The translations under genes and the position numbers were made by a program. 64,000 bases of DNA from an uncultured Chloroflexia bacterium (GTDB taxonomy: Bacteria; Chloroflexota; UBA6077; JACCZL01): contig CAVXYC010000020.1 of assembly GCA_963765765.1 (NCBI GenBank), positions 320,001 through 384,000 of the forward strand, given 5' to 3'. The notes below the pieces were generated by a model. It did no database searches. It was not told the origin of the DNA and saw only the letters and a list, made by a program, of their open reading frames with translations. This document shows, piece after piece, positions 1,419-54,982 of the stretch (position 1 is its first letter; each line of letters begins with the position of its first letter).

Positions 1419-5795
<4,377 letters not shown>

Positions 5796-5905: not shown

Positions 5906-9424
<3,519 letters not shown>

Positions 9425-33088: not shown

Positions 33089-33246
33089 ATGAGCTCGGCG
33101 CCGCCAGCTGCCCAATCGCCGCGCGCGGCTCGGGCGCCAGCTAAAAAAGCTGAGTTGTCACGCAGATGCGGCCGCCTGTGCGTGCCGACACCGCCTGGTA
33201 CGGAATCCATGTGTATGAAGGAGATCGATCTCAGCCCCTTCGGCCT

Positions 33247-33273
33247 CGTCGATTTACACCATCCCCGAGCGTC
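33247..33273 (+). promoter_or_regulatory. ECF42-like promoter motif
   Basis: CGTCGA-N17-CGTC, 45 nt upstream of DHFR-like gene. Confidence 0.5.
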
Positions 33274-33317
33274 CCAGTAACGAGGCACGATCCAAACCTA
33301 CGCAATGGGAGGAAATC

Positions 33318-34003: not shown

Positions 34004-34088
34004 GTAGGTGATCCTATGCGCCCAGGTAGAGCGTGACTTCCCAATTCACAACGATTTTCCGAGAACCATGAACACGAGAGGACAAAAC

Positions 34089-34496
34089 ATGAGCACCAAG
34101 ATCTTCATCAACATGCCGGTAAAGGATCTAAATAGGTCAATGGAGTTTTTCAGAGCGATCGGCTGGACGTTCAACCAACAGTTCACCGACGAGACGGCGG
34201 CGTCTATGGTCATCACGGATGACATTTACGCCATGCTGCTCACCCATGAGAAATTCAGCGAATTTACGGATAGGAAGATCGCCGACACGGGCACGGCGGA
34301 AGTGCTGATCGCTCTTAGCGTGGACAGTAAAGCTGACGTGGATCGAATTGCTGACGCCGCGCTTAAAGCGGGTGGCAAGGAAGCTAAACCGCCACAAGAT
34401 TACGGCTTCATGCAGCTACGCACGTTCCTCGATCTCGACGGCCACCATTGGGAGATCCTGTACATGGATCCCAACCACGTCCAGCCAACGGCGTAA
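34089..34496 (+). CDS. VOC/glyoxalase family protein, copy 1
   Basis: IFINMPVKDL, FN.QFTDE.A, DYGFM..R.F.DLDGH.WE. Confidence 0.92.
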   Translation: MSTKIFINMPVKDLNRSMEFFRAIGWTFNQQFTDETAASMVITDDIYAMLLTHEKFSEFTDRKIADTGTAEVLIALSVDSKADVDRIADAALKAGGKEAKPPQDYGFMQLRTFLDLDGHHWEILYMDPNHVQPTA

Positions 34497-35651: not shown

Positions 35652-37652
35652 TCAGACGTGCTGGCTCAGGAACGCGTGCAGCTGCTCGGCCCCGACGATT
35701 GGCTCCGAGAGCGGCCCCCACTCAGACGGGTACAGCAGGAATGGCGCGGTCTGGGCGCCACCGGCGCCGCCGTGGCAGCCGATAAGCTCCTCGAAGGCCG
35801 CCACCTGCCCGGTCTCGGGCTCCCACAGACTGTTCACGACAAGGTCACCGACATCGGTGTAGGTGGACAGGCGCCGCAGGAAGTGGGACGTGCTGGGGCT
35901 TAACCCGGCGAGCGGGTCCTCCCCCGTCACACTGTCATCCTGGAGGTTACGTTGGCCTCTGGGACCCAGCACGACGGGCCCCCCTGCGACCTCCGACTCG
36001 ACGAGCACGAACCCGATGCCCGGATGTCGGACAAGCTCCTCGAGCAGCCCCGGATAAACCCTGTCGATGGCTTCCAGGCTGAGACGCTCAGAGTACTGAG
36101 TAAAGTACACCAGCGCCAGGTTCCCGGAGGCGCAAACCACGACGTTCGCATCGTTGACTGGTGGACGATCTCGGGCCGCCGGATCAAGCGCCTCAGGCCG
36201 CCCGATGCCAAGGTGCTGCACGATCCAGCGCCCCGCGCCTCCCACGGCGCCGCCGAGTGGCGTAACCTCACTGACCAGCGCGTCAACCTGACCCGGGCCC
36301 TCACCACTGCCAGCCGCCAGTCGGACATCCGTGTCAGGCAACAAGCTCCTTACCAGCTCGTCGAGCGTCTGCCCGAACCGCTGGTGAAATGTCGCCCCGG
36401 TACTCTGGCCGTGGTCCGATAGCACGACGAACCGGTATTGACGGGGCGCCCGCCGGGCAGCGCTCTCCAGCTGCTGAAGCTGCCCCTCCATCTTACGCAG
36501 CACACTACGGGCGTCTTCTGTTGCGGGCCCGGCGTGGTGCGCCACCTCGTCGTAGCCAAGGTAGTCCGCATACACGACACGTCGGCCGGCGAACATGTCA
36601 GCCACGATCGTCCACGTTGTGATGTCACGCAGCAGGACCACCGTGATCGAGCGTGCGAGCCGATAACTGCGGTCGCGCTCCATCCGTGGCTGAACATCAT
36701 CTAGGCGCTGCCGGCGGGCCTGCCGGCGCTCCAGCAGCACGTCCCACAACATGGCGCCCAGGGCCCGGTATAGGTTGTAAGGATTGACAAAGTAGTCGTA
36801 GAGGTCGCGTGACCTAACCGTGAGCTGGCCCGACTCACTGGTCAGGTGGCTCATGGTGACCACACAGTGTTCGGCGCCGCCGGCGACGATGTTGGCGACA
36901 CTGGAGCCTTCCTCGCGCAAGAGGCCGTGATCGGTTGACTGGCGCTGGTCGATCAGATGCGCATCGTTGGGGTGGTTGGACACCATCAGGCGACCACTCG
37001 ACTTCTCATACCAGCGGAAGGCAGGAATGTTGGCGTTGTTCCCATACAGGATGCCCGTTTGGCCACTGGTGGTCATTGACGGGAGATCACACTCCCAACC
37101 CTCGAGTCGGTGGCTGCCCGAAGCGAGCCAGCGCGCCAGGGTCGGCAGCCCGCCAGCTTCGAGCTCGTGCCGCAGGATCGGCTCCGCCAGGCCATCGATC
37201 TGGATCAGAATCGTGCCGGGCTCGTTCAGGTCAGAGGTCGGGACGCGGCGCCTCTGCAGCCAACGCACGACGTTTCGATAGAACGAGTCGTCGTCATTGA
37301 TCCCGAGCAGACCGCTGAGGAGCGTATTCAGAATGGCCAGACCGAACGCGAGCAGAAACGCGGTCCAGAAGCCATCAACCGCGAAGCCCGGCACGATCGC
37401 CGCGGCGACGAGCACGATCAGTCCGTTAAGGGCGAAAGCGGTCAGCAAAAAGCGCGCCAGGCCCAGGTTGACCGACAGCAGCATGATTGCGGGCCGAACC
37501 AGCGCGTTGAGCGCGCCGATGACCAGCACCACCAGGAGGCCGCTTTTCCAATCGGCAACAAAGACCCCAGGCAGGAGCCGCACCAGCACCGCCAGGGCGA
37601 CGGCCTCAATGGCCCAGGTGACGAGGCCGCGAATCGTGAGCTTGACTAGCAT
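35652..37652 (-). CDS. Membrane protein: 4-TM holin-like domain fused to alkaline-phosphatase/phosphodiesterase domain
   Basis: Hydrophobic N-terminus (LNAL.RP, VPGF.VDG); IQIDGL, GYDEVAHH.GP, LSDHGQ, HGG.GG.Q. Confidence 0.85.
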   Translation of the reverse strand: MLVKLTIRGLVTWAIEAVALAVLVRLLPGVFVADWKSGLLVVLVIGALNALVRPAIMLLSVNLGLARFLLTAFALNGLIVLVAAAIVPGFAVDGFWTAFLLAFGLAILNTLLSGLLGINDDDSFYRNVVRWLQRRRVPTSDLNEPGTILIQIDGLAEPILRHELEAGGLPTLARWLASGSHRLEGWECDLPSMTTSGQTGILYGNNANIPAFRWYEKSSGRLMVSNHPNDAHLIDQRQSTDHGLLREEGSSVANIVAGGAEHCVVTMSHLTSESGQLTVRSRDLYDYFVNPYNLYRALGAMLWDVLLERRQARRQRLDDVQPRMERDRSYRLARSITVVLLRDITTWTIVADMFAGRRVVYADYLGYDEVAHHAGPATEDARSVLRKMEGQLQQLESAARRAPRQYRFVVLSDHGQSTGATFHQRFGQTLDELVRSLLPDTDVRLAAGSGEGPGQVDALVSEVTPLGGAVGGAGRWIVQHLGIGRPEALDPAARDRPPVNDANVVVCASGNLALVYFTQYSERLSLEAIDRVYPGLLEELVRHPGIGFVLVESEVAGGPVVLGPRGQRNLQDDSVTGEDPLAGLSPSTSHFLRRLSTYTDVGDLVVNSLWEPETGQVAAFEELIGCHGGAGGAQTAPFLLYPSEWGPLSEPIVGAEQLHAFLSQHV

Positions 37653-37924
37653 CAGGCGGCGCGCGTGCGCGTCTTCTCGCTGCACAGACTGTCCACGGTG
37701 CCCAGGTCCTGGATCGCCTCTAGCCGGCGCACGATCACTTTCTCCCAAACCATGCGCTGTGCATTCGCGCTCAGCATGGCGGTCGCAATTATCGACAGGA
37801 ATTCGGTTGTGAGGCCAGCCGCCCAGAGACACCGCGAAAAGCTCGACTCGAGTGGATCCTGGCACCACAGAGCGTTCACCTGGAAGACAAGAGCGCTACC
37901 CACCACCTGTGCTCGGGATGGCAC
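37652..37924 (-). pseudogene. Internal remnant of an MgtA-like P-type ATPase
   Basis: GLTTEFLSII.TA.L...A.RM..EKVIVRRLEAIQDLG.VD.LCSEKTRT mirrors GLTPE.LP.IVT..L...KVIVK.L.AIQN.G.MD.LCTDKTGT with the phospho-Asp lost. Confidence 0.7.
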
Positions 37925-38880: not shown

Positions 38881-38925
38881 GTTTCTGGCACTGATCAGGG
38901 ACGCCTGCCTTACCGTGGAGCTGAA

Positions 38926-39000
38926 TGGCGAGCACGGAGGGATTCGAACCCCGATACCTGGTTCCGAAGAAGAGTGCTCTACCCGCTGAGCTACGGGTGT
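38926..39000 (-). pseudogene. Degenerate full-length tRNA-Arg(UCG) copy
   Basis: Aligns end to end with tRNA at 54770-54845 with about 8 substitutions and 1 deletion that break the acceptor and anticodon stems. Confidence 0.85.
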
Positions 39001-39194: not shown

Positions 39195-39836
39195 ATGAGA
39201 AAGATCATTTCGGCCGCGTTCGTCAGTCTTGATGGCGTCATGCAGGCTCCGGGCGGTCCTGAGGAGGACCCAACGGGCGGCTTCGAGTACGGCGGTTGGA
39301 CTGCCCCATACTGGGACGAGAACTTCGGTCAGGGCACGGCGGAGAACTTCGGTCGCCCGTTCGATCTTCTGTTGGGCCGCAAGACGTATGAGATATGGGC
39401 TGGTTATTGGCCACATGTCGACGTCGATCCTAGCGCGAGCACGTTCAACGAGCTGATGGCAGCCATCGCAAACAACTTCAACAGCGCCACGAAATACGTG
39501 GCCACACGCTCAGAACCCGAGCTGACCTGGCAGAACAGCAAGTGGCTGGGCGATGACGCAGTGGCCTCCGTCCGCGACTTGAAGGCAGGCGATGGCACGG
39601 ATCTGCTCATCCAGGGCTCCAGCGACTTTTCCCAGTCGCTCATTGCCGCTGACCTGATTGACGAGTATCGACTGCTGATCTACCCACTGATCCTGGGTAA
39701 GGGCAAGCGACTGTTCGGGGAGGGCGTCGTTCCGGTCGCATTCAAGCTGACCCGCTCGGTTGCTTCGCCGAGCGGTGTGATCGTCGCCTCGTACGAACGG
39801 GACGGTGATATCAAGACGGGTTCATTCGAGCTCTAG
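39195..39836 (+). CDS. Dihydrofolate-reductase-like (RibD C-terminal) protein, copy 2
   Basis: Close paralog of 33318-34003 with the same motifs. Confidence 0.92.
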   Translation: MRKIISAAFVSLDGVMQAPGGPEEDPTGGFEYGGWTAPYWDENFGQGTAENFGRPFDLLLGRKTYEIWAGYWPHVDVDPSASTFNELMAAIANNFNSATKYVATRSEPELTWQNSKWLGDDAVASVRDLKAGDGTDLLIQGSSDFSQSLIAADLIDEYRLLIYPLILGKGKRLFGEGVVPVAFKLTRSVASPSGVIVASYERDGDIKTGSFEL

Positions 39837-39905
39837 AGGTAGACAGCCCGAACCGCAAGAATTCATCACTTGATCAACTCGACCACAAATGAAAGATGAG
39901 ACACT

Positions 39906-40331
39906 ATGAGCTACAAGATTTGCGTCAACCTGCCGGTAAAGCACCTGAAAAAATCAATCGAGTTCTTCAAGGCGCTCGGCTGGACGTTCAACCCCCAGTT
40001 CACCGACGAGACAGCAGCCTCACTGGTCATCTCAGACGAGATCTATGCCATGCTGCTCACGCACGAAAAATTCAGTGAGTTCACCGACCGGAAGATAGCC
40101 GACCCGGGCACGGTAGAAATGACGATCGCCCTCGGCGTCGATAGCAAGGCTGAGGTCGACCGCATCGCGGACGCCGCCATCGCAGCCGGCGGAAAGGAAG
40201 CCGAACCCCCGCAGGATTACGGCTTCATGCAGCAACGGAGCTTTCTCGACCTCGACGGACACGGTTGGGTGGTTCTCTACATGGATCCTGCCCAGGTTGC
40301 AGGCCGCCTCATAATGTTCCGAGCATCCTGA
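39906..40331 (+). CDS. VOC/glyoxalase family protein, copy 2
   Basis: Close paralog of 34089-34496. Confidence 0.9.
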   Translation: MSYKICVNLPVKHLKKSIEFFKALGWTFNPQFTDETAASLVISDEIYAMLLTHEKFSEFTDRKIADPGTVEMTIALGVDSKAEVDRIADAAIAAGGKEAEPPQDYGFMQQRSFLDLDGHGWVVLYMDPAQVAGRLIMFRAS

Positions 40332-41088: not shown

Positions 41089-41330
41089 CAGCACCAGGAG
41101 GCTCTTAATGCGCTCCAGTAGATCATGAGCGACTTACTTGATCTCGGTGCGCTCCTCGGTCGTGAGTTCGGGGGAGGGGCGGGTGAGGATGTCGAAGATG
41201 ACTAGCTCTTCCTCAATTGGGTTTCACAGACGTGCCACTCCTGCTCATCATCCAGGCTGTTACTTAGTTTGAGTAGCTCCTCATAGAGCTCGTCGATACT
41301 GGAGCTCGTCGATACTGCAGCTGCCGACAT
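41089..41330 (-). pseudogene. Type I restriction subunit HsdR C-terminal fragment
   Basis: SIDELYEELLKLSNSLDDEQ..EEELVIFDILTRPSPELTTEERTEIK*VAHDLLERIKSLLVL with frameshift and in-frame stop. Confidence 0.72.
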
Positions 41331-41357: not shown

Positions 41358-41417
41358 GCATTTGAACTGAAGATTGAGGTGCGCCCGGAGGGATTCGAAC
41401 CTCCGACACCTGGTTCC
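41358..41417 (-). repeat. Direct repeat (att-like) of tRNA-Arg 3' half plus downstream flank
   Basis: GCATTTGAACTGAA..GCGCCCGGAGGGATTCGAAC.CCGACACCTGGTTCC matches 54751-54810. Confidence 0.88.
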
Positions 41418-41731
41418 AAAGTTCGGAGCGGTCGTGCGACCCAGTGCTGCGCCCACCATTGCTGAACTGACGGAACTACCTTCCGTGCGGCCGAGAGCCG
41501 CCGGTTCGACGCCTGTCTGACCAGGATTGGGATCACCATTGGGCTCAACTTGCTCGGTGGACTGAACACAAGGAGTCCGGTGAGCGCCAGATCAGCGCCC
41601 GTCTGAGCCAAGTGGCCAGAGCCACCTGGGCCCGCCTTTTACCCGCACCGCTTTGGAGGGTGTGATGTCGCGGCAGACGACCTGTCGATGATTGCACCAA
41701 GCTGGCCGAGAAGGACGGCCTGTGCCGTGAT

Positions 41732-42220
41732 GACTACATCAGGTGGCGCCAGTCGGCTCACAGGGCCCCCGGTGACCGTGCCCGCAACCCCGTCACTCAA
41801 CCCTCTCCCGGCCAAGTTTGGGATCGGGTCAGGAGGGCTCGAACGTGCTGGCTCTGGATCGGAAACATCAAGAATGGCTACGCCCGCTATTGGGACGGGA
41901 AGACCCCAGGTCGGCCCACCGTATCGCCTACGAACACTCTGTCGGCCCGATACCCGGGGAACGTTCTCGCCAGTACCTGCCCTGACGGCCCTCAGCATTG
42001 CGTCTACTACGGGACTGGACCCCCGCCCGCCTCGGGCCAGCGCTACGACCGCGCCCTGGGCATCATCGGGACCGGGACGCTGCCGAACAGAGGCTGCCGC
42101 AATGGCCACCTCCAGACGCCCGAAAGCGTCGGCTCCGCCAGGACTCGCGTCACCGCTCTGCCTGGAATGCCAGCGTATCGCCCGGGTGCGCCAAGCCGCC
42201 CGTGGGGCGCACTTGGACAA
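41732..42220 (+). pseudogene. Degenerate phage-type HNH endonuclease
   Basis: WDRVRRARTCWLWIGNIKNGYARYWDGK..AHRIAYEHSVGPIP and C-terminal GCRNGHLQTPES..CLECQR across frameshifts. Confidence 0.65.
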
Positions 42221-42477
42221 CTCGCGTACTGGGACGCAATCCCACCGGGAGGCTCGGCAAACGCACAAAAACGGGGCCCTCGTGGCCCCGGCGTTGCAGA
42301 GCTATCCCGGTTCATCGTTGCCAGACCGAACGGGACCAGGTAAGGCCGCCTGGGGGCACATCCGTCTGCTGCCCGGGAGGACTACACGCTCGCATCTCCA
42401 TGGGTCTTGACAGCTGCCCGGGCGTATGCAATATTGCACGGGTACCGCGTCTGCAAGCTCCTCGTGGAGGTCCCGCC

Positions 42478-43517
42478 ATGCTGCACCGTGCCGTTCGGTT
42501 CCTGATGCTGACGTTCCTGTTGGCCGGAGCTCGGCGTTCGCCCTGCTGCCGGTGGGGACGGCGATTGCGGCCCCACCGACGCTCACGGTGAGATCGCTCA
42601 ATGCGGGCCTGGCACTACTCGGATCAACGCTGACGGCCGCATGCTCGACGCCGAACACACTGACCTTTAGCGCTTCGGGAGTGCAGTCATCGAGTCCCGA
42701 ATGCCCCTATCCCGGCCCCTTCACGGAGCAGGGGACCCTGACCCGCGACCCGGCATCGGCCAGTACACCTTCGCGGCGACCTTCGAGATCCAGAGTCACC
42801 ACCGGGACCGTCACTGGCACCAAGAGCGCCGCGTACGTTACATTATCCCAATGGCATTGGCTTCGCTTGTTCCGGCAGCACGGCACGATCGGCTTCAAAC
42901 TTTCCAGCGAGCTACACCGCCCGCATCGAGACTGCCGAGGCGTCTTCAGTGTCAGTCGCACCTTCTTTAGACTGTCCTGGCTCCTGCTGTGCCTCACCTG
43001 CCCATCGCAGCGACTGCACTAGGACAATGTTCACTCGTCGCAGCAAGAAGCTGACCCTGCGTCGTTAAGACGCTCGCGGCAAGCACCGCACCAGCCGACG
43101 CCGACCGGCGCGGTCGCCTGGACCCGTCCTCCTTCCGCCGCCTGCGCGACGATGTCCTCAACGCGCTCCGGGGGCGGGCAGCGCTATGTCCGCCTGTACG
43201 AAACCCACAGCCCGGAGATCGTCCGCCTGATGCTGGAGGATTCGAATCTGCGCACCGAGCTGCGGGACGGGCTGCTGCTGTGGCAGGCCGATCTGGCGGC
43301 GCTGGCCGACGGGCGCGGCGGCAGTGCCACGATCGACGCCGAGCAGGTGCGGGCGGCCGAGGCGGTGCTGGACCGATTAGCGGCAAAAGGCAGTCCGAGG
43401 CTACGCCGGGCGATCGAGCAGGAGCGCCGGGCGCACCCGCCCGCGAGCTTCGTGGGCAAGCCGCTCGACCGGGCGCTGGACGAGCTACGCGCGGGCAAGC
43501 CGGAGCGGGACCGTTGA
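42478..43517 (+). CDS. Secreted protein, heavily frameshifted, with C-terminal helical domain resembling CFI-box-CTERM
   Basis: Signal-like MLHRAVRFLMLTFLL, PYPGPFTEQG, then RRLRDDVL..GGQRYVRLYETHSPEIVRLM. Confidence 0.45.
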
Positions 43518-43625
43518 CTCGGGTCGGGCTGATGCGAACGAGGCGCGCCCAGCGGCATGAGAACCGACCTCCGGTTCGGGCAGGCTGTTCCCCCAAACGG
43601 CGCGCCTTGGCGGTCGAGATTCACA

Positions 43626-44934
43626 ATGACAGCGCGGCATAACGCGACTGTATACGTGGGCATGAGCGCGGATCTCCTCCATCCCGGTCATCTCAAAGTA
43701 ATCGAAGCCGCGCGGCAGCTGGGACACGTCATCGTGGGGCTACTCACGGACAAGGCGATCGCGAGCTACAAGCGCTTGCCCTACTTGAGCTACGAGCAGC
43801 GCGAGATTATCGTCAGAAACATCAAAGGCGTGGAGGAAGTTGTCGCTCAGGAAACGCTCGATTACGTGCCAAATCTCAACAGACTCCGACCAGACTTTGT
43901 AGTTCACGGTGATGACTGGATTGAGGGCGTGCAGCGGAAGACGCGCGAGCGGGTGATACAGGCCCTCCGGAAGTGGGGAGGAGAACTCGTCGAATTCCTT
44001 ACACTCAGGGAATTTCTTCAACGCTCTCAATCGTCAGCTCCGAAAGATTGGTACCACTCCTCAGATCCGCTTGAAGCGCTTCAGACGCCTACTGAACTCG
44101 AAGCTACTTGTGCGCGTCCTCGAGGCGCATAACGGGCTCACCGGACTGATCATCGAGAATACCGAGATTACCGTGGAGGGAGTGCCTCGCGAGTTCGACG
44201 GCATCTGGATCAGTAGCCTGACGAATTCAGTTGCGAGAGGCAAACCAGACATCGCACTTGATGTAAATGCTCGGCTCAACACGATTAACGAGATCCTCGA
44301 GGTCACCACCAAACCAATCATCGTCGACGGTGACAATGGCGGGCAGCCAGACCATTTCACCTTCCTGGTTCGGACGCTTGAACGACTGGGGGTGTCCGCC
44401 GTAGTCATTGAAGACAAGGCTGGGGAGAAGAGAAACTCACTCTTTGGCCAGGATGCGGGCCAGTGTCAGGACAGCATCGACAGGTTTACGAAGAAAATAT
44501 CCATCGGCAAGCGAGCGCAAGTCACGGAAGATTTCATGATTTTCGCGCGAATCGAAAGCTTCATTCTTGGCAAAGGATATGTCGATGCCGTAACGCGTGC
44601 GAGGGCGTACAGCGAAGCCGGAGCCGACGGAATTCTGATTCATAGCAATAAGAGCACTGGAGCCGAGGTCGTTGCGTTCTCTCAGGAGTTCGCGACGTTC
44701 ACGAATCGAGTACCACTTCTAGTCATTCCGACTATGTACGATAGCGTCCACGACGACGACCTGACCAAGTTGGGAATTAACGTCGTAGTGTACGCGAACC
44801 ATCTGCTGCGAAGTGCCTACCCCGCGATGGTCTACACTGCCGAGGTCATCTTAAGAAACGGAAGAGCGTTTGAAGCAAGAGAGCACTTGATGCCGGTGGA
44901 CGATTTAATCACGCTAATACCTACGCCCCCATGA
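43626..44934 (+). CDS. pepM: Phosphoenolpyruvate mutase with N-terminal cytidylyltransferase domain (frameshift near 44000-44030)
   Basis: HPGH (HxGH) and VVHGDDW in N-domain; EAHNGL, DGDNGG and diagnostic EDK-X5-NS ([10 protein letters not shown]). Confidence 0.93.
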
Positions 44935-46097
44935 TGCTGGAGCCTCGAGACTTTTTTGACAGTCTTGGCAAGGCTGGTGTCAGTTTTTATACGGGTGTCC
45001 GGATTCGTTGCTCAGAGACTTCAACGCGTATGTCGCTGAGCATCAAGCCAACCACGTCGTCGCGGCCAACGAGGGGGGTGCAATCGCCCTTGCCGCTGGA
45101 CATTATCTCGCTACCGGGCAGCTCGCATTGGTATACATGCAAAATTCCGGCTTGGGAAACGCCGTCAATCCGCTCGTGTCCCTCGCGGATCCCGTCGTCT
45201 ACGGCATCCCGATACTCCTCCTGATTGGCTGGAGAGGTGAACTCGGGAAGAGGGACGAACCCCAGCATATTAAGCAGGGAGCGATAACGTTAGAGCTCCT
45301 AGAGGCTCTAGGGATGCCGTACGCCGTGATCGATGCGTCGACTGGAGGATATCGAGTTAGTAACGCGTGAAGCGGCAGCGATTGCAAAGGCCAAGTCATG
45401 CCCATATGGACTCGTAGTCCGGAGAAAACCTCAAAGAATACACACTTCAGAAGGATCTCCGGACGCGCTATTCGCTTACGCGTGAAGACGCATTAAAGGC
45501 CATCTTGGAAACAGTCGGCGACAACGCTGCCGTTGTGAGCACGACGGGAATGGCATCGCGAGAGATATTTGATACCGGGACGCACTGGACCAGAGCCACG
45601 CCCGTGACTTCCTCACGGTGGGCTCGATGGGTCATGCGTCGCAGATTGCGCTCGGTATCGCGCGCGCCACACCAAATCGAGATATTTACTGCCTGGACGG
45701 TGATGGCGCTGCGATTATGCACCTGGGTGCACTAGCCATCGTAGGCTCTCTGGCACCCGCGAACTTCCGCCACATGATCATCAATAATGGCGCGCACGAT
45801 TCGGTCGGTGGCCAGCCAACGGCCGGGCTCGATATCGATTTTTCCGGAATTGCGCTGGCCTGCGGTTACACAAACTGCATGGTGGCCGGGTCGGAGGACG
45901 AGATCGCGAGTGGCATGCAAGCGCTCATCTCCGTGCCAGGCCCTACGCTCCTGGAAATCAGGGTGACTAAGGGTAACCGGTCGGATCTTGGTAGGCCTAC
46001 AACAACACCTTTGGAGAACAAGGCACTATTCATGGAGTTCTTACGCCGTGAAACCAGCGGCGCACATTGGATTCGGCAGCGTCCAGCATCTCGGTGA
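44931..46097 (+). CDS. ppd: Phosphonopyruvate decarboxylase (several frameshifts)
   Basis: FYTGVPDS, AANEG.A, YMQNSGLGN.VNPL, GWRG..DEPQH..QG, GSMGHA, DGDGA.IMHLG, NNGAHDSVGGQPT. Confidence 0.9.
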
Positions 46098-47150
46098 TTT
46101 ACTGCCGGGGTACGACGCGCACGCGGTGCTCCTTGTCACAGGAGGTGCGAGTTATTCGCTTCCGGTGCTGAAAAGGCCCTCGACCTCACCTGCGACTGCA
46201 GGAACTCCATCGCTTCTCCGGGTTCTCGAATAACCCGAAGCTGGGGGACGTTGAGTCCGGCATTGAGCTCTATCGGAAGGTGAAGCCCGACGTCGTTGTG
46301 GCCGTTGGTGGCGGTAGCGTGATCGACATGGCGAAGCTCATCAATGTGTACGCGGCCGAAGGTGTCTCGGGCAATGTGACGGTCGGCGTGCCACTGATCG
46401 CGATCCCCACGACCGCTGGTACGGGCAGCGAGGCTACTCAGTTCGCACGGTTTACATCGAAAAGCAGAAACACTCAATCTCGAACGAGGCGCTACTGCCC
46501 GATGTGGCAATCGTCGACCCGGCGCTGACTCGGAGCTTACCGCCGCTCGTGGCAGCGGCCAGCGGTATGGACGCGCTGAGCCAGGCTATCGAATCGTACT
46601 GGTGTGTCAACTCAACAGACGAGTCGAAAGATTTCGCAAGAGAAGCGATCGGTCGGATCGTGCCCCACATTAGAGAGGCTGTGCACGCGGCGTCCGACGA
46701 ACCGAGGCTAGCAGTGGCGCAGGGCGCACACCTCTCGGGCAAGGCTATCAACATCACGAGGACCACGGCGCCCCATGCACTGTCCTACGCATTGACATCC
46801 CGGTTTGGTGTTCCCCATGGCCAGGCGGTGAGCCTTACTTTCCGGACATGTTCGAGTTTAATCAGGGAGTCACGGCGGAGGATACGACAGACACCAGGGG
46901 CGCTGAGTATGTTAAGCGGATCCTTGGAGATATATGTGCCTTTCTCGGATGCCGCACCGTGACTGATGCCAGCGGAATGCTTCGACAGCTCATGCTTGAC
47001 ATCGGCTTGGCAACAACCTTTGCTGAGTTGAAGGTCGATAGACAGCAGGCGATCGAAGTTATGGTTCGTGAAGTCAACGCGGAGCGCCTCGTTAATAATC
47101 CGAGACGCCTAACGGCGGAGCACTTGCGAATGTTACTTGGCGGCCTTTGA
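46048..47150 (+). CDS. Iron-containing alcohol dehydrogenase, likely phosphonoacetaldehyde reductase (frameshifted)
   Basis: GGGSVIDMAK, IPTTAGTGSEAT, DALSQAIES.W, AINITRTTAPHA.SY, HG.AV, NAERL.NNP; directly after ppd. Confidence 0.85.
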
Positions 47151-47153
47151 GCC

Positions 47154-48316
47154 ATGGAACCGCCGATTGTCCTTGCATCCCCTCGAGAGCCATCGGGCGG
47201 TTCGTGGCTCATCAACTGCCTCCTCGAACTCGGCGTCCGAGTCAATCTCCAGCCCACAGCGGATCGCATCTGGCGCGGTGCTAGCGGCCGCCAGCGGCCC
47301 TCTGTCATGTGGCAACCTGCGGAGAACGGCCGCTGGCGGCTGAATCCACGCGCCGAGGAGCTAAAGAAGTGGCTACCGATCCTGGGACACCAGGAAACGC
47401 TCCACTTTCGAGACGATCTCGAGGTGCTTTACGTGCAGGATCTGCCACAGGTCGACCTCACCAGCGCGCGCACGGTACTCTTCGTCCGGGACCCGCGAGA
47501 CGCAATCCATTCGCTGTATCGACGCATCCAACCCGAAATGTCGCTCGAGGACTTTGTTGCCTTCCCGCATCCGGTGACGCTTCTCGATGCCATTGACCAC
47601 TGGCGGCTGTTCACCGAGTGCTGGCTTGCAGTCGATGGCACGCTCATCTACCCATTCGAGGACTACAAGGCGGACGCTCCAGGTCTCTTGAGCCGGATCG
47701 TCAGAGACCTTGGGCTCGTGGCCTCACGAGAGGAGATCACTCGGGCCGCCAACGAATCAACCTTTGAGAAAGCACGGGCTGGCGATCAACGGTACCGTTC
47801 GTCGCATCCAGGAACAAGAACATTGCAATGCGCGCGGGACAGGTTGGCGAATGGAAGACCTCGCCTGAACTCCGCCAACTGTCCCGCGAGATCGAGAGAC
47901 GCATGGGGTCCATCCTGATCAAGCTCGGCTACATGCCTCACGACGAGCTAGAGGCAGTTTCCAACATCGGGAGTACTTCGCAGTTCCACTTTCTCAGAGC
48001 GTTTGAACGCATCGAGCTGCCATCAGATTTGCGCAAAGTTGTGAAATCCAGCGACCCGATGGCGTGCCCGAGACTTCCAGCAATACTGAAACTAGCATCC
48101 ACTGCTGACGCTGATCTTATGCGACGCGCGCGGTTGCACCCGCTTGAGGCACGTACCTTATTCGATACTCTCCAGGAGTACGTCGCTGCTTGGCATGACT
48201 GCTATCGCGGTCGATTTAACGCGGCTCGGGCGGCATTCGATGATGGCGCCGCCTATCACATGACTCGGATTCGCGAGCTTATGACGAGTCGCCGCCTCGC
48301 ACAGAACTTGGAGTAA
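47154..48316 (+). CDS. Sulfotransferase-fold protein (frameshift near 47820)
   Basis: LASPREPSGGSWL (5'-PSB-like), VRDPRDAIHS (3'-PB), FED, RAGQVGEWK. Confidence 0.78.
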
Positions 48317-48322
48317 GCTCGA

Positions 48323-49666
48323 TCAGGCTGACCCGCTAGCCTCCGCCTCGTCACTCGCCAAATCGCCCGCTGCATGAGCCATTGATGGGACAAAGGAGGG
48401 CAGGATAGTACGAAGGCGTCCCGTAGACGCTAGATGCATGAGTAGGCTGTGGCTGTCGCCCGTTTCGTTCTGTAGATGCACTGTCACGCCGGGACAGTCG
48501 GCCAGCCAGTCGGCGAATTCTCTATCGCGCTTATTCAGGGCGGAGTACCAGATGCTATACCGCGTGACTCCGTTGTACTCGGAGAGTAGGCTCCTGAGCC
48601 GCGCCATGGCTTCGTCAGAGCCATTGAGTCGCACGGTGCGCGGCGAAAACGCCCACACTGTCTGCATTCTGCACAGATGCCCAAACGTTAACGCTCCGTA
48701 ACTGCCGCTCGAATAACCGACACTATGTAACTCTCGCACGTGCGGGAGGGAGCTGGCATAAGACGATATCCAGCCCGCTAAAGACTCTGTGTCTGGGATC
48801 TCAGCGCTAATCCCATGAGTAAAGTTCTCGAGATAGGGATCACGGATATACAGTAAATTGCGCCGGAGAAGACCCCATCGTCTCATAGCTTCTATCTGGG
48901 AGCCAGTAGCTTTACCATCTCGACTACCCATTATGGCATCAATACCACCAAATATTACGAAGAGCTGCGCACAGTCTTTCCTCTCTAACTGCACGACCGG
49001 TTTTCTTGATTCAGACTGCTTGAGCAAGTAATTCCGAAACCATGGTAATTCCGAGAAGGATGGCGGCACTTTATCCAAGAATTGCAATATCTGACTCGCT
49101 ATCCGAGTAAGCCGATAGCCTGATGTAATCCCCAGTTGCGAGTCGGCAGTTGCTAAGAACTGAATGACCCGTTCAGATAGCAGGCTTTCAGCTTCAACTG
49201 GAGATAACGCAGCTGTGTCAAGCTGCAATTCAGAATTGCTACGCTCATAAGGGTGAGTGACCCCGATAAAGCAATCATATTCAGAAGCAAAGGCTCGCTG
49301 ATAATTTCCCTTAGTATCCCGGGCTGAGCAGACAGCCACAGGGCAGTCGAGATAAACTTCGAAGAATGGGCTTAATCGATTCCGAGCCATGACACGCATA
49401 GATGCACGATGTGCAATTGCTGCAATGACAACCACTTTCCCCGACTTCATCTCCGTGCTGGCTTCCTCGACTAGTCTTCGCCACACAGCCTCCCGGTCCT
49501 GGGGCGATGTCCGTAACGGCCTCCAGAGTCGGGCTCGAAACTCTTCACCGTCAATCAGCACAACGTTGTCAATCCCGAGCTCATTCAAGCGGGATACCAA
49601 CGCACGGGCCAGGGTCGTCTTACCGGATGCAGACAACCAGTGAGCAAGATTGCGGCGGAGGGCCAT
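48323..49666 (-). CDS. CysC/APS-kinase-like domain fused to alpha/beta-hydrolase-like domain
   Basis: SASGKTT P-loop, IDGEEFR, EVYLDCP..RDTKG.Y..FIGV..PYE; C-domain GYSSG elbow, AFSP, late His. Confidence 0.75.
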   Translation of the reverse strand: MALRRNLAHWLSASGKTTLARALVSRLNELGIDNVVLIDGEEFRARLWRPLRTSPQDREAVWRRLVEEASTEMKSGKVVVIAAIAHRASMRVMARNRLSPFFEVYLDCPVAVCSARDTKGNYQRAFASEYDCFIGVTHPYERSNSELQLDTAALSPVEAESLLSERVIQFLATADSQLGITSGYRLTRIASQILQFLDKVPPSFSELPWFRNYLLKQSESRKPVVQLERKDCAQLFVIFGGIDAIMGSRDGKATGSQIEAMRRWGLLRRNLLYIRDPYLENFTHGISAEIPDTESLAGWISSYASSLPHVRELHSVGYSSGSYGALTFGHLCRMQTVWAFSPRTVRLNGSDEAMARLRSLLSEYNGVTRYSIWYSALNKRDREFADWLADCPGVTVHLQNETGDSHSLLMHLASTGRLRTILPSFVPSMAHAAGDLASDEAEASGSA

Positions 49667-49691
49667 GCTTGCACGTTGCTTGGATGCCCGC

Positions 49692-50435
49692 TCACCTGCG
49701 CTTGCCGATCCAGACGCGCGTCGTATACGGTATGCTGGCCGTCTCCGGACACTCTCGCAACACGAGATCTTCGATCGTCGTTACAATCTCGTTGAAGCGG
49801 CTCCCCGCTTGACGCACTAATGTCGCGTGCGAGGACCAGGCAGCAAGCCAGGCTTTGGTGCTCTGTTCGTACACAAACGATACTTCGAAGCGGTGAACCG
49901 AGGCGAACAAGCCAGAAGATTCGATGAATTTGGATTGATCTGCGCGTCGATCGCCGTAGCTATAGCTCGGCACTTCCCGCTGAATCAGGGTCTCGATTTT
50001 GCTCTGTAAGGGATCATCGAGATCGCGATGATTGAATAGGACCGCCAGCTGACCGCCGCTGCGAAGTAATCTCCGGGCTTCGCGAAGCGTCGCATCGTAG
50101 TCCGCCACCCCAAACGATGAACCGTAGGTCAGAAGGGCGAACGCACCGTCTTGCAGACCGGTCTGCTCCATCAATGCATCGTGCCACCAAACGTTGGGCA
50201 ATCCCGAGGTTCGCGATTCGCCAATTTCCCTCATTCGTGGATTCGGTTCGACAGCTATCACATCGAGATTTCGAGCTGCAAGCTTCAGTGTCAGATGACC
50301 GGTCCCGGCACCGAGGTCCAACACGGGGTCACCCGCATTCAGATGAGCGACTTCAACCAGCGTGTCAATTGCGCCATCGGCGTAGTTTGGCCGGTGGGAA
50401 TACGATTCGGCCAAAGCCGTGTAGTCCCACTCCAT
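49692..50435 (-). CDS. Class I SAM-dependent methyltransferase
   Basis: WDYT..A..Y..RPNYA, LDLGAGTG, VEPN, GSSF, NHRDL.DP, YTTR.W. Confidence 0.9.
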   Translation of the reverse strand: MEWDYTALAESYSHRPNYADGAIDTLVEVAHLNAGDPVLDLGAGTGHLTLKLAARNLDVIAVEPNPRMREIGESRTSGLPNVWWHDALMEQTGLQDGAFALLTYGSSFGVADYDATLREARRLLRSGGQLAVLFNHRDLDDPLQSKIETLIQREVPSYSYGDRRADQSKFIESSGLFASVHRFEVSFVYEQSTKAWLAAWSSHATLVRQAGSRFNEIVTTIEDLVLRECPETASIPYTTRVWIGKRR

Positions 50436-50493
50436 GTTCGCTTTCCTTTCGACGACCATCTCGGCCCTGCACAGAGACTTGAAGGCCGCGCAG

Positions 50494-50769
50494 TTACGGT
50501 GAAGGCGGCTGGTCGATGTAGTGGGCAATGAGGTCGCTTAACGTCCCGATAGTTCGGAAATACTCCTCCTGAAAATCGGCCTCCAAGAATTCGAAGTTGA
50601 AGCGTGTCTCGAGTGCCGAGATGAGTTCGACGACGCTGAACGAATCAAGACCTAAGCCGCCATCAAACAGCGGAGTATCTCGGCCAAAGACTCCAGTAAT
50701 CTCCGGCGGGTTGAACTCCTCCTTTATGATGCCTTCAATAGCACCGACGATCTCATTCTGGTCAGGCAC
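50494..50769 (-). CDS. Stand-alone acyl carrier protein
   Basis: LF.GGLGLDSFSVVEL...LE..F phosphopantetheine motif. Confidence 0.88.
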   Translation of the reverse strand: MPDQNEIVGAIEGIIKEEFNPPEITGVFGRDTPLFDGGLGLDSFSVVELISALETRFNFEFLEADFQEEYFRTIGTLSDLIAHYIDQPPSP

Positions 50770-50903
50770 GCGACTCGTGTCTCCCCGTTAGTAGCTTTCG
50801 TGATGAGCTCGGTACCGCGCGTTCTGAATCGTGCGCGAAGCGGACCAACCGCTGATGGGCCGTCCTTTGCAGCCCCTCGACATGAGACTCCCGGAGCGTT
50901 GTG

Positions 50904-52316
50904 TCAGGATATCATGGCGGCTAGCGCCAGACGATCAGGCTTCGCCATGGCCGTCAGCGGCAATTCGTCCACGAATAGAAAACGATCGGGTACCGCATGC
51001 CCGGGCAGATGGTCAAGCGCCATTCGACGCAGGGTCGTAACGTCCGGCGTAACGTCCGGGCTCGTCGTGCAGACGGCCACCAGTTCCCTGCCTCTCGCCG
51101 TCGTCCCGCCTAGAACAATCACCGCACGCTCAATGGCGCCCAGTCGTTGCAGTGCGCGTTCGATATCCGCGAAGACCACCAGGAAACCATCCCGCTTGAC
51201 GCTATCGTCGAACCGACCGGCCAGGTGTAGCCGTCCTGTGGCGTCCACTCGACCCAGATCCATCGTGCGATACCAGCCGTCCCGGTAGAGTGATCGTGGC
51301 TTCCTAACTATCCCGTCTATATCGGCGTAGCCTGCACAACCGTACGGATGGTCAAAACGCAACGGGAAGGGCTCGTCTGCCAGCCGAGAGGCGCTAGGCG
51401 GCGCCAGCCTCAGACCTGGTAACGGAAGTTCCGGCCGTGTCTCGCCGCTCGAGAAAAGGGTCATCCGGGCTGCCGGCGGAAATGGCGCCCAATTCTGTCG
51501 AACCATACAAACTGACCGTACAACCATACCGTCGCTCATACTCAGCAAATGTGTATTCGTCGGTGGCATCGCCTGCTAGGACCGTGAGTCGGGTACGGTC
51601 TGGCCCTGCTTTCGCCCCTTCACTAGCAGAGCACAGAATGCAGGGGTGAGGAAGGCAACCGTGGGCTCGAATTCCGATTCGGCCCGGAGGTACTTCAGGA
51701 GGTTCGCCTCGGGTATCAGGCGAACCGACGCTCCGGCCAGCGCGGCCAGGGAGGAATGCCGCCCCAAATCCATACATGTGTGCCAGTGCAACGGGGATCA
51801 CGACCCGGTCCGACGCGTCCATTTTCAGGCGAGTCAGCAGTTGCGCGCGTTGCCCAGCAAAATTTCCGGCTTCATAAGCCACGATCTTCGGGCTTCCTGT
51901 TGTGCCCGATGTCCTGAGATAGACGTACGAAGGCGCCCCATCGCTCTCATGATGAGTTTCTTGTCCAATCTCCGGACGATCCGAAAATATGGCCGGCCAT
52001 CCCAGCTTGGGTGACGGCTTGGCCGTCGGTGTCGAGCAGAACTGTGCGGCAGAACGCTGGCAAGGCCCCGGGCACTACTTGACCGCTCTCGACGGAATCG
52101 GCCGCCGCCATAACAACACGGATTGCTCGCGGGAGAGGAGTGCAAGGAGAGCCGCCCCGCTACGAGCGTCGGTGCGAACGTGCAGTGCCACGCATTCGCC
52201 AGGCGAGACACCATTTTCGCTGAGCCATGCGTCCCACCGTGGCGCTGCGCCCGTACCTGTTCGTACGTAACGGCACCGTGCTCGTCCGAAATGTAGCCGT
52301 CGCCCGTAACCGCCAT
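50904..52316 (-). CDS. Class I adenylate-forming enzyme (acyl-CoA/ACP ligase), heavily frameshifted
   Basis: SG.TG.PK region near 51900, P.AHMYGFG, YGSTELG, WYRTMDLG..G.L..GR.DD..KRDG, LP.TAMAKPDR. Confidence 0.78.
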
Positions 52317-52547
52317 CCTTAGACTCTAAGATTTCTCGCCGGTGGTAGCGACGTCGTCCCCGCGTGGCCACCACCGGTCTGTCCTGGGGCTGGTCGCGAT
52401 CTTGCCCCTGATTGACTTGACCGCCGCTCGCTGCAGGCGCATCACACCGTGCTTCCGGCGAAGCGATATCGTCCGCTGGGGCTGCACGAGGCGGCACCGA
52501 TTTGCTCGTTTCAATGCTCCACGCTATTGAGAGATGAGAACTCCATG

Positions 52548-53341
52548 CTAGCAGGGCACCGTAACAGACCTGCTGCGGTCCTTCACCTCTTTCGTCATCC
52601 ATATGAGCTTTTTCTCTCCCAGGCCGACGATACGGGGTTTCTGACATCCGACCTCATTTCGCCAGAATTCCGTGTCCGCAAAGACGTCGATTACGAGAGG
52701 AAGATGACCATCCTAGAGTAGAGTGTGCCACCATTCATAAGCAGCGGATAGAGATACTTCAGGCAAGTGCGCGTTGAAGCAGCGAGGTCCACATCCATGT
52801 AATTGCTGCGATCGATTTGCGGAACCGGGCATGGTTTCTTCGAACCATCCAGGCACGAAACGGCACACCTCTGGACGGCCGAATCGTGCTACATTCGCCT
52901 TCACCTCGTCTATCGTTCCGCAGTATGAGCCCTTCGCAAATTTTTCCGGCCGACCGAAATGTTCCGGTCGTGCGGCTCGTTGTTGTACGGCAGGCCTTGG
53001 AAGGAATCGAAAACAACAAGCTCCCGACCAGCGAAGGCTGCCGCCAAACTAAACTTCGCGGTGCTCATCCCCTATAGGCTCCGGCCTCAACCACGACACC
53101 CGAACTGCTCGGTGGGAGAGAAAATCGTACGCATGAATACCAACATCTCCTCTTGTCGGTGAGGACTGTCGATGGCGAAGCTTGCCGCGTAGAGTTCCTT
53201 CACGATCCGCAGGCGGTCACTGAACGAAATGGACAGAGCGTGGTTGAGCACGAAGGCTGCGCAGGCCAGAAGGTCGCGCCGCTCTCGGATGGCGCGACGA
53301 ATACTGTAGGGCGGTCGGGTTAGGACGGCTTCTGCTGACAT
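52548..53341 (-). CDS. TylF/MycF-family O-methyltransferase, frameshifted
   Basis: VEAGAYRG.S, VFDSFQGLP, FVPGWFEETMP, MDVDLA.STRTCL.YLYP.L..GG. Confidence 0.8.
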
Positions 53342-53349
53342 ATCCTTGC

Positions 53350-53700
53350 TGGCGAACAGATACCGATCTCATCTCGGCAGACGTCGATGAACCCGGGCGG
53401 TCGACAACTGTTCGCTCAAACGCTGGCTCGTCTGGCAATGCTGCCCGTTGCAGTAACGGACCGCGGAGGCACAAATGCCGTCGGCAGTCGCTCCCCCCTC
53501 CGTCACGAAAGGCTTGGGTTGGGGAACCAGGGACGTGGGCGGAACCGTACTCCGAGTGTTTGCGGGAGTCAAGTGTTATGGCGCTCTCGTTGGCCAGGAC
53601 TTGCCTTGTCTCTGCGCGGCTGGCCTCCGCGGTCTTCGCCTTTTGGGCTCCTCTACGGTTCTGTAGCATGCCACTGCCCTGGCAAAGCCGCGACGCCGAG
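53350..53700 (-). pseudogene. Rhodanese-like domain, frameshifted or degenerate
   Basis: TLDSRKHSEY.SAHVPG, YCNG.HC..S.RL.EQL, GF.DV.R. Confidence 0.55.
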
Positions 53701-54227
53701 CATCACCATGGTGCTGGCCCCCAGTTCGCGATCTGCGCCAGCCCGAGCTTTAGGGCCAGTTCTCCAGCGTCCTGCACATCGATCGCCTACTCGCCATCGG
53801 CAATTCCTTACTCATGACCAGATCTGCATCGGAACGCCCATATTATGCTCCCCGCCCGCGCGCAATAGCCCACTTGCCCACTGAGTTGGGCCACACTGAT
53901 GCTTTCTTGGAAGAGTTTCTTTTCCTTCACGGTTCGGCGTTGAGGACAGTGCCTGTTTCACCAGAGCCGAACTCATAGGGTCTCTCGGTTGAGAGTGGCA
54001 TATGACGGTCGTATCGGTGGCTCTCGTTGCAGCTCTCATACATCAGTAGTCCGTGGAGTAGTCCGTGGCAGACCCGACTCCCGAAGTGCCGCCGCCCGGT
54101 TGGAATGAACAGCTTCTCGACGCTCCACTCGAGGGCGGCGAATGCCGCACCGTCTTCGCCGGTCTCGGAGCCTGGCATCGTCCGTCATCGGCACGGAAGC
54201 GGGCTACCTCATCCAGCCCCCCGCAGA

Positions 54228-54433: not shown

Positions 54434-54769
54434 CTTAGATTAGTGCTTGAGTGGTCTGCGTCGCGGTCAGATTAGCTGCTTCGACGGGAAACACGCCCGT
54501 CGCGTCAGCAGGGTAACTTGCGACGCTATCAATGTGCCGCAGCAGCAGGGCCGTGCCTGAATTTCGGAGCGCCACAATCGCTCGCGGACCGCTGGTCCCG
54601 ATCCCACTTAAGCAAAATCCACACTACGACACCCGCGACCGCAGCTCCCTCAGGGTTCTGCTGCGAAGTTCCACAGGATGTCACCCCTATCGGCTTCAGA
54701 ACGAATGGAGGTAACCGCAGCAAACGCGCTGCTCGCAGCACAGCTAACGGGCATTTGAACTGAAAATGA

Positions 54770-54845
54770 TGGCGCGCCCGGAGGGATTCGAACCCCCGAC
54801 ACCTGGTTCCGAAGACCAGTGCTCTATCCGCTGAGCTACGGGCGC
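54770..54845 (-). tRNA. tRNA-Arg (anticodon TCG)
   Basis: 76-nt cloverleaf, anticodon arm CTGGT-CTTCGGA-ACCAG, TTCGAAT loop, encoded CCA. Confidence 0.95.
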
Positions 54846-54905: not shown

Positions 54906-54982
54906 TGGGGTGAGCGAGGGGATTCGAACCCCCGATCTTCAGGGCCACAACCTGACGCCTTAACCGCTAGGCCACGCCCACC
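54906..54982 (-). tRNA. tRNA-His (anticodon GTG)
   Basis: Cloverleaf, TCAGG-TTGTGGC-CCTGA arm, G-1:C73 pair, encoded CCA. Confidence 0.95.

Follow-up and report, generated by a model that had tools for sequence, protein, structure and literature searches.

What would a phosphonate gene cluster make when the ordinary early enzymes of such pathways stand beside a sulfotransferase-fold protein, a divergent kinase, two methyltransferases and an adenylating enzyme with a carrier protein, and can such a cluster be alive when most of its genes are split between reading frames? The locus that raises these questions lies at 43.6-53.7 kb of a 64,000-nucleotide stretch of DNA from an uncultured Chloroflexia bacterium (the window, by which we mean the whole stretch analysed), in an interval with almost no long open reading frames (ORFs). 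It carries a fusion of a cytidylyltransferase with phosphoenolpyruvate (PEP) mutase, hereafter CT-PepM, and an earlier note made from the letters of the sequence had taken it for an island-borne cluster with unusual tailoring genes. Co-occurrence and gene fusions show that three of its products form one functional unit, namely CT-PepM, the sulfotransferase-fold protein and a fusion of a hydrolase-like domain to a kinase resembling that of adenosine 5′-phosphosulfate (APS), which we call the kinase-hydrolase. This tailoring trio is recurrent and, as far as searched, undescribed in the literature, and it suggests a phosphonate product that has not yet been described.

Antibiotics and herbicides have demonstrably come from phosphonates, which also form a large marine phosphorus pool, and to our knowledge the steps that follow nucleotide activation are not known for most pepM clusters. 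The interest of the present locus lies in a recurrent trio in which the sulfotransferase-fold protein has an altered presumed catalytic position and in which independent gene fusions tie the kinase both to PepM and to a methyltransferase. Together they give a concrete hypothesis open to bench tests, that of a sulfated phosphonate or of a new mode of transferring activated phosphonates. A literature search, with about 1.7 million PMC articles and the subscription journals beyond its scope, gave no paper that joins phosphonate, PEP mutase and a sulfotransferase, or 2-hydroxyethylphosphonate (HEP) and a sulfotransferase. A term search of Acker et al. 2022 (PMC8931226) likewise brought up nothing relevant. 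The earlier note had not recognised the combination among characterised phosphonate pathways, and no matching description came to light in this literature either.

Two converging operons

Most of the gene identifications come from a Pfam run on stop-to-stop fragments of the window. In all, ten of the eleven gene calls of the earlier note were borne out where it had placed them, the sole exception being a rhodanese relic. On the plus strand, a left operon runs from CT-PepM through phosphonopyruvate decarboxylase (Ppd) and an iron-dependent alcohol dehydrogenase (Fe-ADH) to the sulfotransferase-fold gene. It converges, across the 6-nt gap that had been claimed (48316 versus 48323), on a right operon of the minus strand that holds a TylF-like methyltransferase, a stand-alone adenylating enzyme, a carrier protein, a class I methyltransferase and the kinase-hydrolase. 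Unbroken ORFs in the cluster are limited to the class I methyltransferase and the carrier protein; all other genes are split between frames. The features are as follows:

43626..44934, plus strand: CT-PepM fusion (Fom1-type architecture); Pfam PF01467 and PF13714; 1-nt gaps near 43995 and 44024
44931..46097, plus strand: Ppd, directly after pepM; Pfam TPP_enzyme_N and TPP_enzyme_C
46063..47150 (aligned part; start slightly upstream), plus strand: Fe-ADH, PhpC/FomC-like by family; Pfam Fe-ADH and ADH_Fe_C
47154..48316, plus strand: sulfotransferase-fold protein of about 387 amino acids (aa), which carries an additional helical domain at its C-terminus; a single frame shift near 47811; alignment, Foldseek and profile
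48323..49695, minus strand: divergent APS-kinase-like and alpha/beta-hydrolase-like fusion; Pfam APS_kinase, alignment to the relative P0002, Foldseek and Atlas leads
49692..50528, minus strand: class I S-adenosylmethionine (SAM) methyltransferase, intact ORF; Pfam Methyltransf_25 and Methyltransf_11 (match at 49695-50537)
50494..50769, minus strand: acyl or peptidyl carrier protein, intact ORF; Pfam PP-binding, E 5.5e-8 (match at 50497-50787)
50904..52325, minus strand: stand-alone adenylate-forming (ANL) enzyme; Pfam AMP-binding and AMP-binding_C; pieces in frames 2, 0, 0, 2
52551..53356, minus strand: putative TylF-like methyltransferase; five frame switches (frames 1-0-1-2-1-2, six pieces), read by eye
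53380..53700, minus strand: the unconfirmed 'rhodanese relic' of the earlier note; no Pfam support

In the left operon, CTP_transf_like (43533-44129, plus strand, E 1.6e-13) and PEP_mutase (43957-44931, plus strand, E 8.6e-51) lie in three frames as assembled and become one continuous polypeptide once the two 1-nt gaps are allowed. A frameshift-aware alignment to the closest homologue, the 436-aa fusion P0028, gave 334 of 431 identical residues (77%) over residues 1-433, with no stops. The PEP mutase fragment of the window scores 173.2 bits against a PF13714 cutoff of 31.5; in NCBIfam it is the homologue P0028 that scored 363.5 against the TIGR02320 cutoff of 319.55. The EDK-X5-NS catalytic motif that had been reported for this PepM is present in the read-through alignment, in a stretch of 11 residues, and serves as a Ppm-specific filter (PMC6697681). 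Ppd is recognised by TPP_enzyme_N (44960-45367) and TPP_enzyme_C (45573-46094), both on the plus strand; with four frame shifts near 44997, 45341, 45426 and 45571 it aligns without stops to the Ppd of loci L027 (206/366 identical) and L001 (199/370). The Fe-ADH (97 bits) and ADH_Fe_C matches are spread over three frames across 46172-47147, and alignment to the alcohol dehydrogenase of L027 (188/360 identical, no stops) takes three or four shifts, near 46171, 46448 and 46846. PepM, Ppd and Fe-ADH lead to HEP, and a Fom1-type domain to its cytidine monophosphate (CMP) derivative, CMP-HEP (PMC8942020, PMC6697681). Several close CT-PepM homologues bear the JGI name 'phosphoenolpyruvate phosphomutase / 2-hydroxyethylphosphonate cytidylyltransferase', and from this name and the Fe-ADH route the cytidylyltransferase domain of the window is predicted to act on HEP. 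The earlier note had seen no aminotransferase, LicD or cytidine diphosphate (CDP)-alcohol phosphotransferase in the locus; in agreement with it, the Pfam scans of the window, which took in 81 small fragments from unannotated stretches, turned up none of these domains.

In the right operon, the AMP-binding_C and AMP-binding matches of the adenylating enzyme (50907-51575 and 51397-52074, minus strand) are in separate pieces, of which the C-terminal one is closest to adenylation domains of nonribosomal peptide synthetases (NRPS) (6mfy, E 3.5e-17) and the middle one matches anthranilate-CoA ligase in the PDB. The carrier protein matched carrier-protein models of NCBIfam, all below their own cutoffs. 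For the TylF-like methyltransferase called in the earlier note there are two collinear matches to TylF (PF05711), at profile positions 116-145 (E 0.033) and 157-191 (E 0.01), both below threshold (13.9 and 15.5 bits against a cutoff of 23), and the frames were read by eye. The rhodanese relic was not confirmed: no Pfam family matched at E<=1 in the fragments covering 53220-53749, which include 53220-53702 and 53372-53575, and the motif-like stretches were seen by eye only.

The trio and its company in other genomes

The Pfam match of the sulfotransferase-fold gene (Sulfotransfer_1 at 47151-47915) is exactly at the cutoff, with 22 bits. A frameshift-aware alignment to the relative P0148 gave 271 of 382 identical residues, and the structure model of P0148 (pLDDT 91.2) had 101 PDB matches in Foldseek at E<=0.001; among the matches listed, all are sulfotransferases or the related retinol dehydratase. 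Both 3′-phosphate motifs, R-x7-S and R-x-G-x-x-G-x-W, are found in the family, where R112, D113, R115, D116, S120 and W234 do not vary across 44 sequences. Since in the family profile these motifs (F-V-R-D-P-R-D...S and the R-A-G-x-V-G-E-W loop) align to SULT7A1 bound to 3′-phosphoadenosine 5′-phosphate (PAP), the predicted donor of the enzyme is likely a 3′-phosphorylated nucleotide. After strand 89-94 of the model, Gln stands in all 20 window-clade sequences shown (P0148-P0182) and His in the 24 of the other clade.

The kinase-hydrolase matches APS_kinase (PF01583) at 48326-49780 on the minus strand with 97.2 bits against a cutoff of 21.1, the domain opening a 447-aa ORF. Alignment to P0002 gave 273 of 455 identical residues, with one 1-nt gap inside the P-loop near 49635-49640. 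In Foldseek the kinase domain has the fold of APS kinases (TMt 0.73-0.87, 30-34% identity); an esterase, 7zjo, was matched at rank 47 (E 1.2e-6). The C-terminal hydrolase-like domain had no Pfam match; its Atlas leads are alpha/beta hydrolases at 0.94-0.96, including the Asp2 type, and it has a GYSSG motif, which would fit a G-x-S-x-G nucleophile elbow and in which G331, S333 and G335 are invariant and Y332 and S334 almost invariant. The family is rare, with 26 proteins at E<=0.001, among them eight full-length relatives (45-60% identity) and five with the hydrolase-like part only. In the species-representative set (185,579 species) an alignment scan gave 22 pattern matches and no relative among them, from which both the family and the genome that the window comes from are taken to be absent there.

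The nearest kin of this kinase are linked to PepM and to methyltransferases, since against an HMM (hidden Markov model) of the kinase domain P0015 scored 157 and P0267 143, and every canonical CysC at most 111. P0015 (745 aa) is a triple fusion of APS_kinase, PepM and NTP_transf_3, a layout that recalls the bifunctional synthases of 3′-phosphoadenosine 5′-phosphosulfate (PAPS), and an APS_kinase fusion of this type is absent from the Ppm fusion inventory in the sections covered of Rice et al. 2019 (PMC6697681). A search for relatives of the class I methyltransferase, which scores 336.6 bits against its own family HMM, returned 82 representatives at E<=1e-30, and five of the ten longer ones scanned (P0267, P0268, P0315, P0317 and P0357) carry an APS_kinase domain, in either order. 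The relatives align from residue ~29-32, and the start of the window gene is likely near 50435. At its other end, the stop TGA (49694-49692) overlaps the GTG start of the kinase-hydrolase (49695-49693) as GTGA, a sign of putative translational coupling between the two. The fusions and this stop/start overlap show, at the level of sequence, that the class I methyltransferase is a predicted partner of the kinase. In a further relative, P0402, the fusion partner is a glyoxalase domain. The similarity of the window methyltransferase to HvrF (9e72, E 2.7e-6) counts as no more than a lead, the function of HvrF being itself a prediction in PMC7858074.

For co-occurrence, PepM was scanned against the same species set; the best 80 of 116 relatives (52-63% identity) were kept, which come from very diverse bacteria and archaea, and the window genes were searched in these loci by tblastn or HMM. 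The cytidylyltransferase was found in 78 of the 80 loci, Ppd in 75 and Fe-ADH in 46, so the early module is ordinary, in keeping with the established enzymes that the earlier note had recognised in it. The counts for the tailoring genes make that set unusual. An APS-kinase-type gene (kinase part only) lies within 10 kb of pepM in four of the 80 loci; the sulfotransferase-fold family appears in one, as two distant ORFs in L053 that score 28 and 24 bits with its HMM; the class I methyltransferase has no true member (0/80), a generic partial match in L056 reaching 44.6 bits; and the carrier protein, the ligase and the TylF-like pieces were each found in none. None of the 80 nearest PepM loci has the tailoring set of the window, and in this the earlier note, which had called the set unusual, was right.

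Metagenomic contigs gave a different kind of evidence. Co-location was read from equal contig size and equal source among the top-ranked matches of three independent searches, which picked out five contigs:

ena, 17992 bp: sulfotransferase P0148 (best match, 73%) and CT-PepM P0028 (best match, 74%)
lgn, 10771 bp: sulfotransferase P0150, CT-PepM P0042 and kinase-hydrolase P0003
ena, 7563 bp: sulfotransferase P0153 and PepM P0030
ena, 5171 bp: sulfotransferase P0156 and kinase-hydrolase P0002
jgi, 11418 bp: sulfotransferase P0161 and kinase-hydrolase P0006

Three of the five full-length kinase-hydrolase relatives on contigs of at least 5 kb share their contig with a sulfotransferase relative. 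As a background of chance, the only other equal size found by eye (3209) has different sources. The link between the two operons that the earlier note had proposed stands at least for the kinase-hydrolase, the sulfotransferase-fold protein and CT-PepM, which share contigs. For the ligase, the carrier protein, the TylF-like gene and the class I methyltransferase, company with pepM elsewhere is putative, none of them having a true match in the 80 PepM loci.

Frame breaks and the insertion site

The cluster has about 20 frame breaks. Frameshift-aware protein-to-DNA alignment of five genes against their closest intact homologues placed two in CT-PepM, four in Ppd, three or four in Fe-ADH and one each in the sulfotransferase-fold gene and the kinase-hydrolase; five switches were read by eye in the TylF-like gene, and the ligase has at least two, probably about six. 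No in-frame stop and no large deletion was found across the five homologue-aligned genes, and their catalytic motifs are intact. Similar lesions occur in the flank. The domains of rpoB (minus strand) lie in three frames (7784-9469, 7423-8001 and 5909-7345), which takes two or more indels in some 700 nt; the trigger factor (tig), class II aldolase and Rieske oxygenase genes are split and fabG is truncated, and rpoC (1419-5795; 1458 aa), the neighbour of rpoB, is intact. Because rpoB is essential and single-copy and cannot be a pseudogene, the assembly itself must make such indels, in local bursts. A CCGG stands no more than 8 nt from five of the 11 mapped breaks (permutation p ~0.002, exploratory, as the motif was picked after the contexts had been seen), and five of eight narrow frame-switch zones elsewhere contain CCGG, against ~0.2-0.4 expected per zone. 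This enrichment fits motif-linked basecalling errors, possibly at a methylated site.

Given the lack of in-frame stops, the equally broken rpoB and the CCGG sites at about half of the mapped breaks, we are fairly confident that most frame breaks are assembly errors, and we hold real decay of the cluster to be unlikely. With most breaks read as assembly indels, the real cluster is probably intact, and apparent pseudogenisation in the window is not to be taken at face value. The earlier note had allowed that the cluster might be dead; that prospect is weakened by the broken rpoB and tig and by the lack of in-frame stops in the five genes, while the denser breaks in the cluster leave some room for decay.

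The cluster ends near an intact tRNA-Arg gene, of which partial copies lie upstream:

38918-38997: further partial tRNA-Arg copy, 92% identical over 49 nt
41358..41421, no strand assigned: partial tRNA-Arg copy (its 3′ half with 19 nt of flank) and likely left att-like boundary of the segment with the cluster; gapless over 64 nt, 89% identity with 54751-54814
54770..54845, minus strand: intact tRNA-Arg (TCG), right island boundary; ARAGORN and Rfam
54906-54981, after tRNA-Arg: tRNA-His; ARAGORN and Rfam

From the partial copies we place the cluster in the last, 13.4-kb segment of a tandem insertion array at tRNA-Arg, which gives substance to the 'island-borne' of the earlier note. The two copies suggest that several successive insertions may have occurred at this gene, and the divergence of the repeat (89%) suggests that the insertion is probably old. 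Within the island the GC content falls to 0.54-0.55 at 48-51 kb and rises to 0.63-0.66 at 41-44 kb, the flanks having about 0.59-0.61.

Several other features of the island were recorded. The ~2.2 kb between the att-like repeat and pepM (41421-43600) are GC-rich (0.63-0.66) and have no Pfam match in any frame, and a perfect 16-nt tandem duplication stands just before the repeat, at 41286-41317. A pair of RibD_C and glyoxalase genes occurs twice, at 33591-34376 and 39468-40193, with 71-78% DNA identity and one pair per island segment, and a DNA methylase fragment lies at 31876-32520. On the minus strand, 35652-37868 is an intact 738-aa ORF with a four-helix holin-like membrane domain and a type I phosphodiesterase/nucleotide pyrophosphatase domain. 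This Phosphodiest-domain membrane protein was considered as the missing transferase of the cluster and set aside, as it had no tblastn match in the 80 PepM loci and sits in another island segment.

Readings of the locus and known systems

At about even confidence, we read 41.4-54.8 kb as one segment of the tandem array at tRNA-Arg that carries a member of a recurrent phosphonate cluster type, the real cluster probably being intact. PEP mutase would give phosphonopyruvate, which Ppd would turn into phosphonoacetaldehyde and Fe-ADH into HEP, and the fused cytidylyltransferase would yield CMP-HEP. The kinase would supply a 3′-phosphorylated nucleotide donor, most simply PAPS from APS, with which the sulfotransferase-fold enzyme would modify HEP, CMP-HEP or a molecule that receives HEP. 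The methyltransferases would add methyl groups, and the adenylating enzyme, the carrier protein and the hydrolase-like domain might add or remove an acyl or aminoacyl group.

A number of observations weigh against this reading. The window has no ATP sulfurylase gene, and no integrase domain was found in the island by the Pfam scans, the 81 small fragments included. P0002 scores 111.0 bits against the apsK equivalog TIGR00455, below its cutoff of 138.7, a value that P0015 (133.9) also fails to reach. The D-G-D-N, L-G-F-S, E-N-I-R-R and I-S-P of canonical CysC, positions that we take to bind APS (a literature search on residue roles in APS kinases gave nothing usable), have become D-G-E-E, Y-G-H-S, E-A-V-W-R and I-A-H in the kinase-hydrolase family. 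We take the position after the strand that precedes the 3′-phosphate motif to be the catalytic His site of cytosolic sulfotransferases; judged from the secondary structure of the model, it is at this presumed catalytic-base position that the window clade would have its Gln. The N-terminal loop of the sulfotransferase-fold family, S-P-R-E-P-S-G-x-[ST]-W, has Arg and a two-residue insertion where a Lys is presumably to be expected in the 5′-phosphosulfate loop of PAPS sulfotransferases, and because of both changes an ordinary transfer of sulfate to a hydroxyl is not assured. Co-location of the trio on the five other contigs is read from contig size and source, not from gene order. To these must be added the density of breaks in the cluster, ~1.8 per kb, at least ten times the lower bound of ~0.14 per kb for the flank.

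Some of these changes are consistent with another use of the same enzymes, a phosphonate counterpart of the PAPS system in which the kinase would 3′-phosphorylate CMP-HEP and the sulfotransferase-fold enzyme would transfer the phosphonyl group, not sulfate, to an acceptor. Changed substrate-site positions in the kinase beside 3′-phosphate motifs kept in the sulfotransferase-fold protein would agree with it, as would the fusion of the nearest kinase relative to PepM and a nucleotidyltransferase in a PAPS-synthase-like layout, and it would supply the transferase that a cluster without LicD or CDP-alcohol transferase otherwise lacks; even so, we consider it very unlikely. A more generic arrangement, a surface glycan both sulfated and phosphonylated, with the kinase boosting PAPS and the sulfotransferase-fold enzyme sulfating a sugar that is separately decorated with HEP, has parallels in loci with sulfate-activation genes beside pepM. 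In locus L053, cysD, cysN/C and a canonical cysC (223.7 bits) come before CT-PepM, Ppd and two Sulfotransfer_1 genes, the four PepM loci with nearby APS-kinase genes point the same way, and in Campylobacter ppm-ppd neighbourhoods are flanked by adenylsulfate kinase (PMC8942020). The island, however, has no glycosyltransferase, flippase or polymerase domain in the Pfam scans, and the kinase and sulfotransferase-fold protein of the window are divergent and unlike those of L053, so that the glycan seems to us a rather improbable product.

The other two alternatives concern the integrity of the cluster. The frame shifts could be real and the cluster a decaying relic in an old island without integrase, making no product in this organism. 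The concentration of breaks (at least 18 frame switches in the 10 kb of the cluster, compared with at least 6 over 41 kb of flank), the att-like copy diverged to 89% without gaps, which speaks for an old insertion, the lack of an integrase domain, and the splitting of other island genes, such as RibD_C at 33219-34000, would all agree with decay. Against this, the aligned genes are free of in-frame stops and large deletions and keep their catalytic motifs, PepM is 77% identical to its nearest homologue, essential rpoB bears equal lesions and about half of the mapped breaks fall at CCGG; we regard a relic as unlikely. It could also be that two unrelated operons converge here and that only the sulfotransferase-fold and kinase-hydrolase genes go with pepM, leaving the TylF-like gene, the ligase, the carrier protein and perhaps the class I methyltransferase to another pathway, perhaps one for a carrier-protein-dependent small molecule or lipid. 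The absence of these four genes from all 80 nearest PepM loci speaks for this and is a further point against the reading we favour. Yet they run in one direction and are closely spaced, with the kinase-hydrolase as the last gene of the string, the class I methyltransferase appears translationally coupled to the kinase and belongs to a family repeatedly fused to APS-kinase-like domains, and a carrier-protein thioester would be a natural substrate for the hydrolase-like domain fused to the kinase. Two unrelated operons are in our view quite unlikely.

Pairs of a stand-alone adenylation enzyme and a carrier protein form a class to which DltA and DltC belong. The window resembles them in its ANL enzyme followed by a small PP-binding protein, with NCBIfam DltA and DltC among the sub-threshold matches, and differs in that it has no DltB/DltD-like partner and that the best C-terminal matches are NRPS adenylation domains.

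The later Fom steps of the fosfomycin route use a radical-SAM/B12 methyltransferase and an epoxidase. The Pfam scans of the window gave no such domain; its tailoring genes are instead those of the sulfotransferase-fold protein, the APS-kinase-like fusion, the class I and TylF-like methyltransferases, and the ligase with its carrier protein. The early part is the same as in Streptomyces, with PF01467 fused N-terminally to PEP mutase and followed by Ppd and Fe-ADH (Fom1: PMC6697681). The phosphonyl-tailoring (Pnt) clusters for surface modification of Rice et al. 2019 (PMC6697681) likewise have a nucleotidyltransferase fused to Ppm, PF01467 being fused to 23.6% of the Ppm proteins in that survey, and the very diverse phyla of the nearest PepM relatives of the window are typical of surface-decoration clusters. 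In contrast to them, the window has no 2-aminoethylphosphonate (AEP) transaminase, LicD-like transferase or glycosyltransferase, and would take the alcohol route to HEP, a route present in 8.5% of ppm neighbourhoods (Li and Horsman 2022, PMC8942020).

APS-kinase or sulfotransferase-family genes beside CT-PepM and Ppd also occur in L053, from Natroniella sp. ANB-PHB2, and in Campylobacter (GCF 385; Li and Horsman 2022, PMC8942020). In L053 (2452-19909), cysD, cysN/C, cysC and a transposase come before pepM; after it come the two sulfotransferases and genes for an NTP-transferase-aminotransferase fusion, a phosphodiesterase-family protein and an ATP-grasp enzyme. It differs from the window in its canonical CysC, its CysD/N, its AEP route by way of the NTP-transferase-aminotransferase fusion and its sulfotransferases of another subfamily, whereas the window has no sulfurylase and a divergent kinase fused to a hydrolase-like domain. 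With SULT2B1, SULT7A1, StaL and Teg12, PAPS-dependent small-molecule sulfotransferases of solved structure, the sulfotransferase-fold protein shares its fold (Foldseek E 4e-7 to 1e-5, TMt 0.43-0.62); it stands apart from them by an identity of 12-23% and by the extra helical domain of about 140 aa that its family carries.

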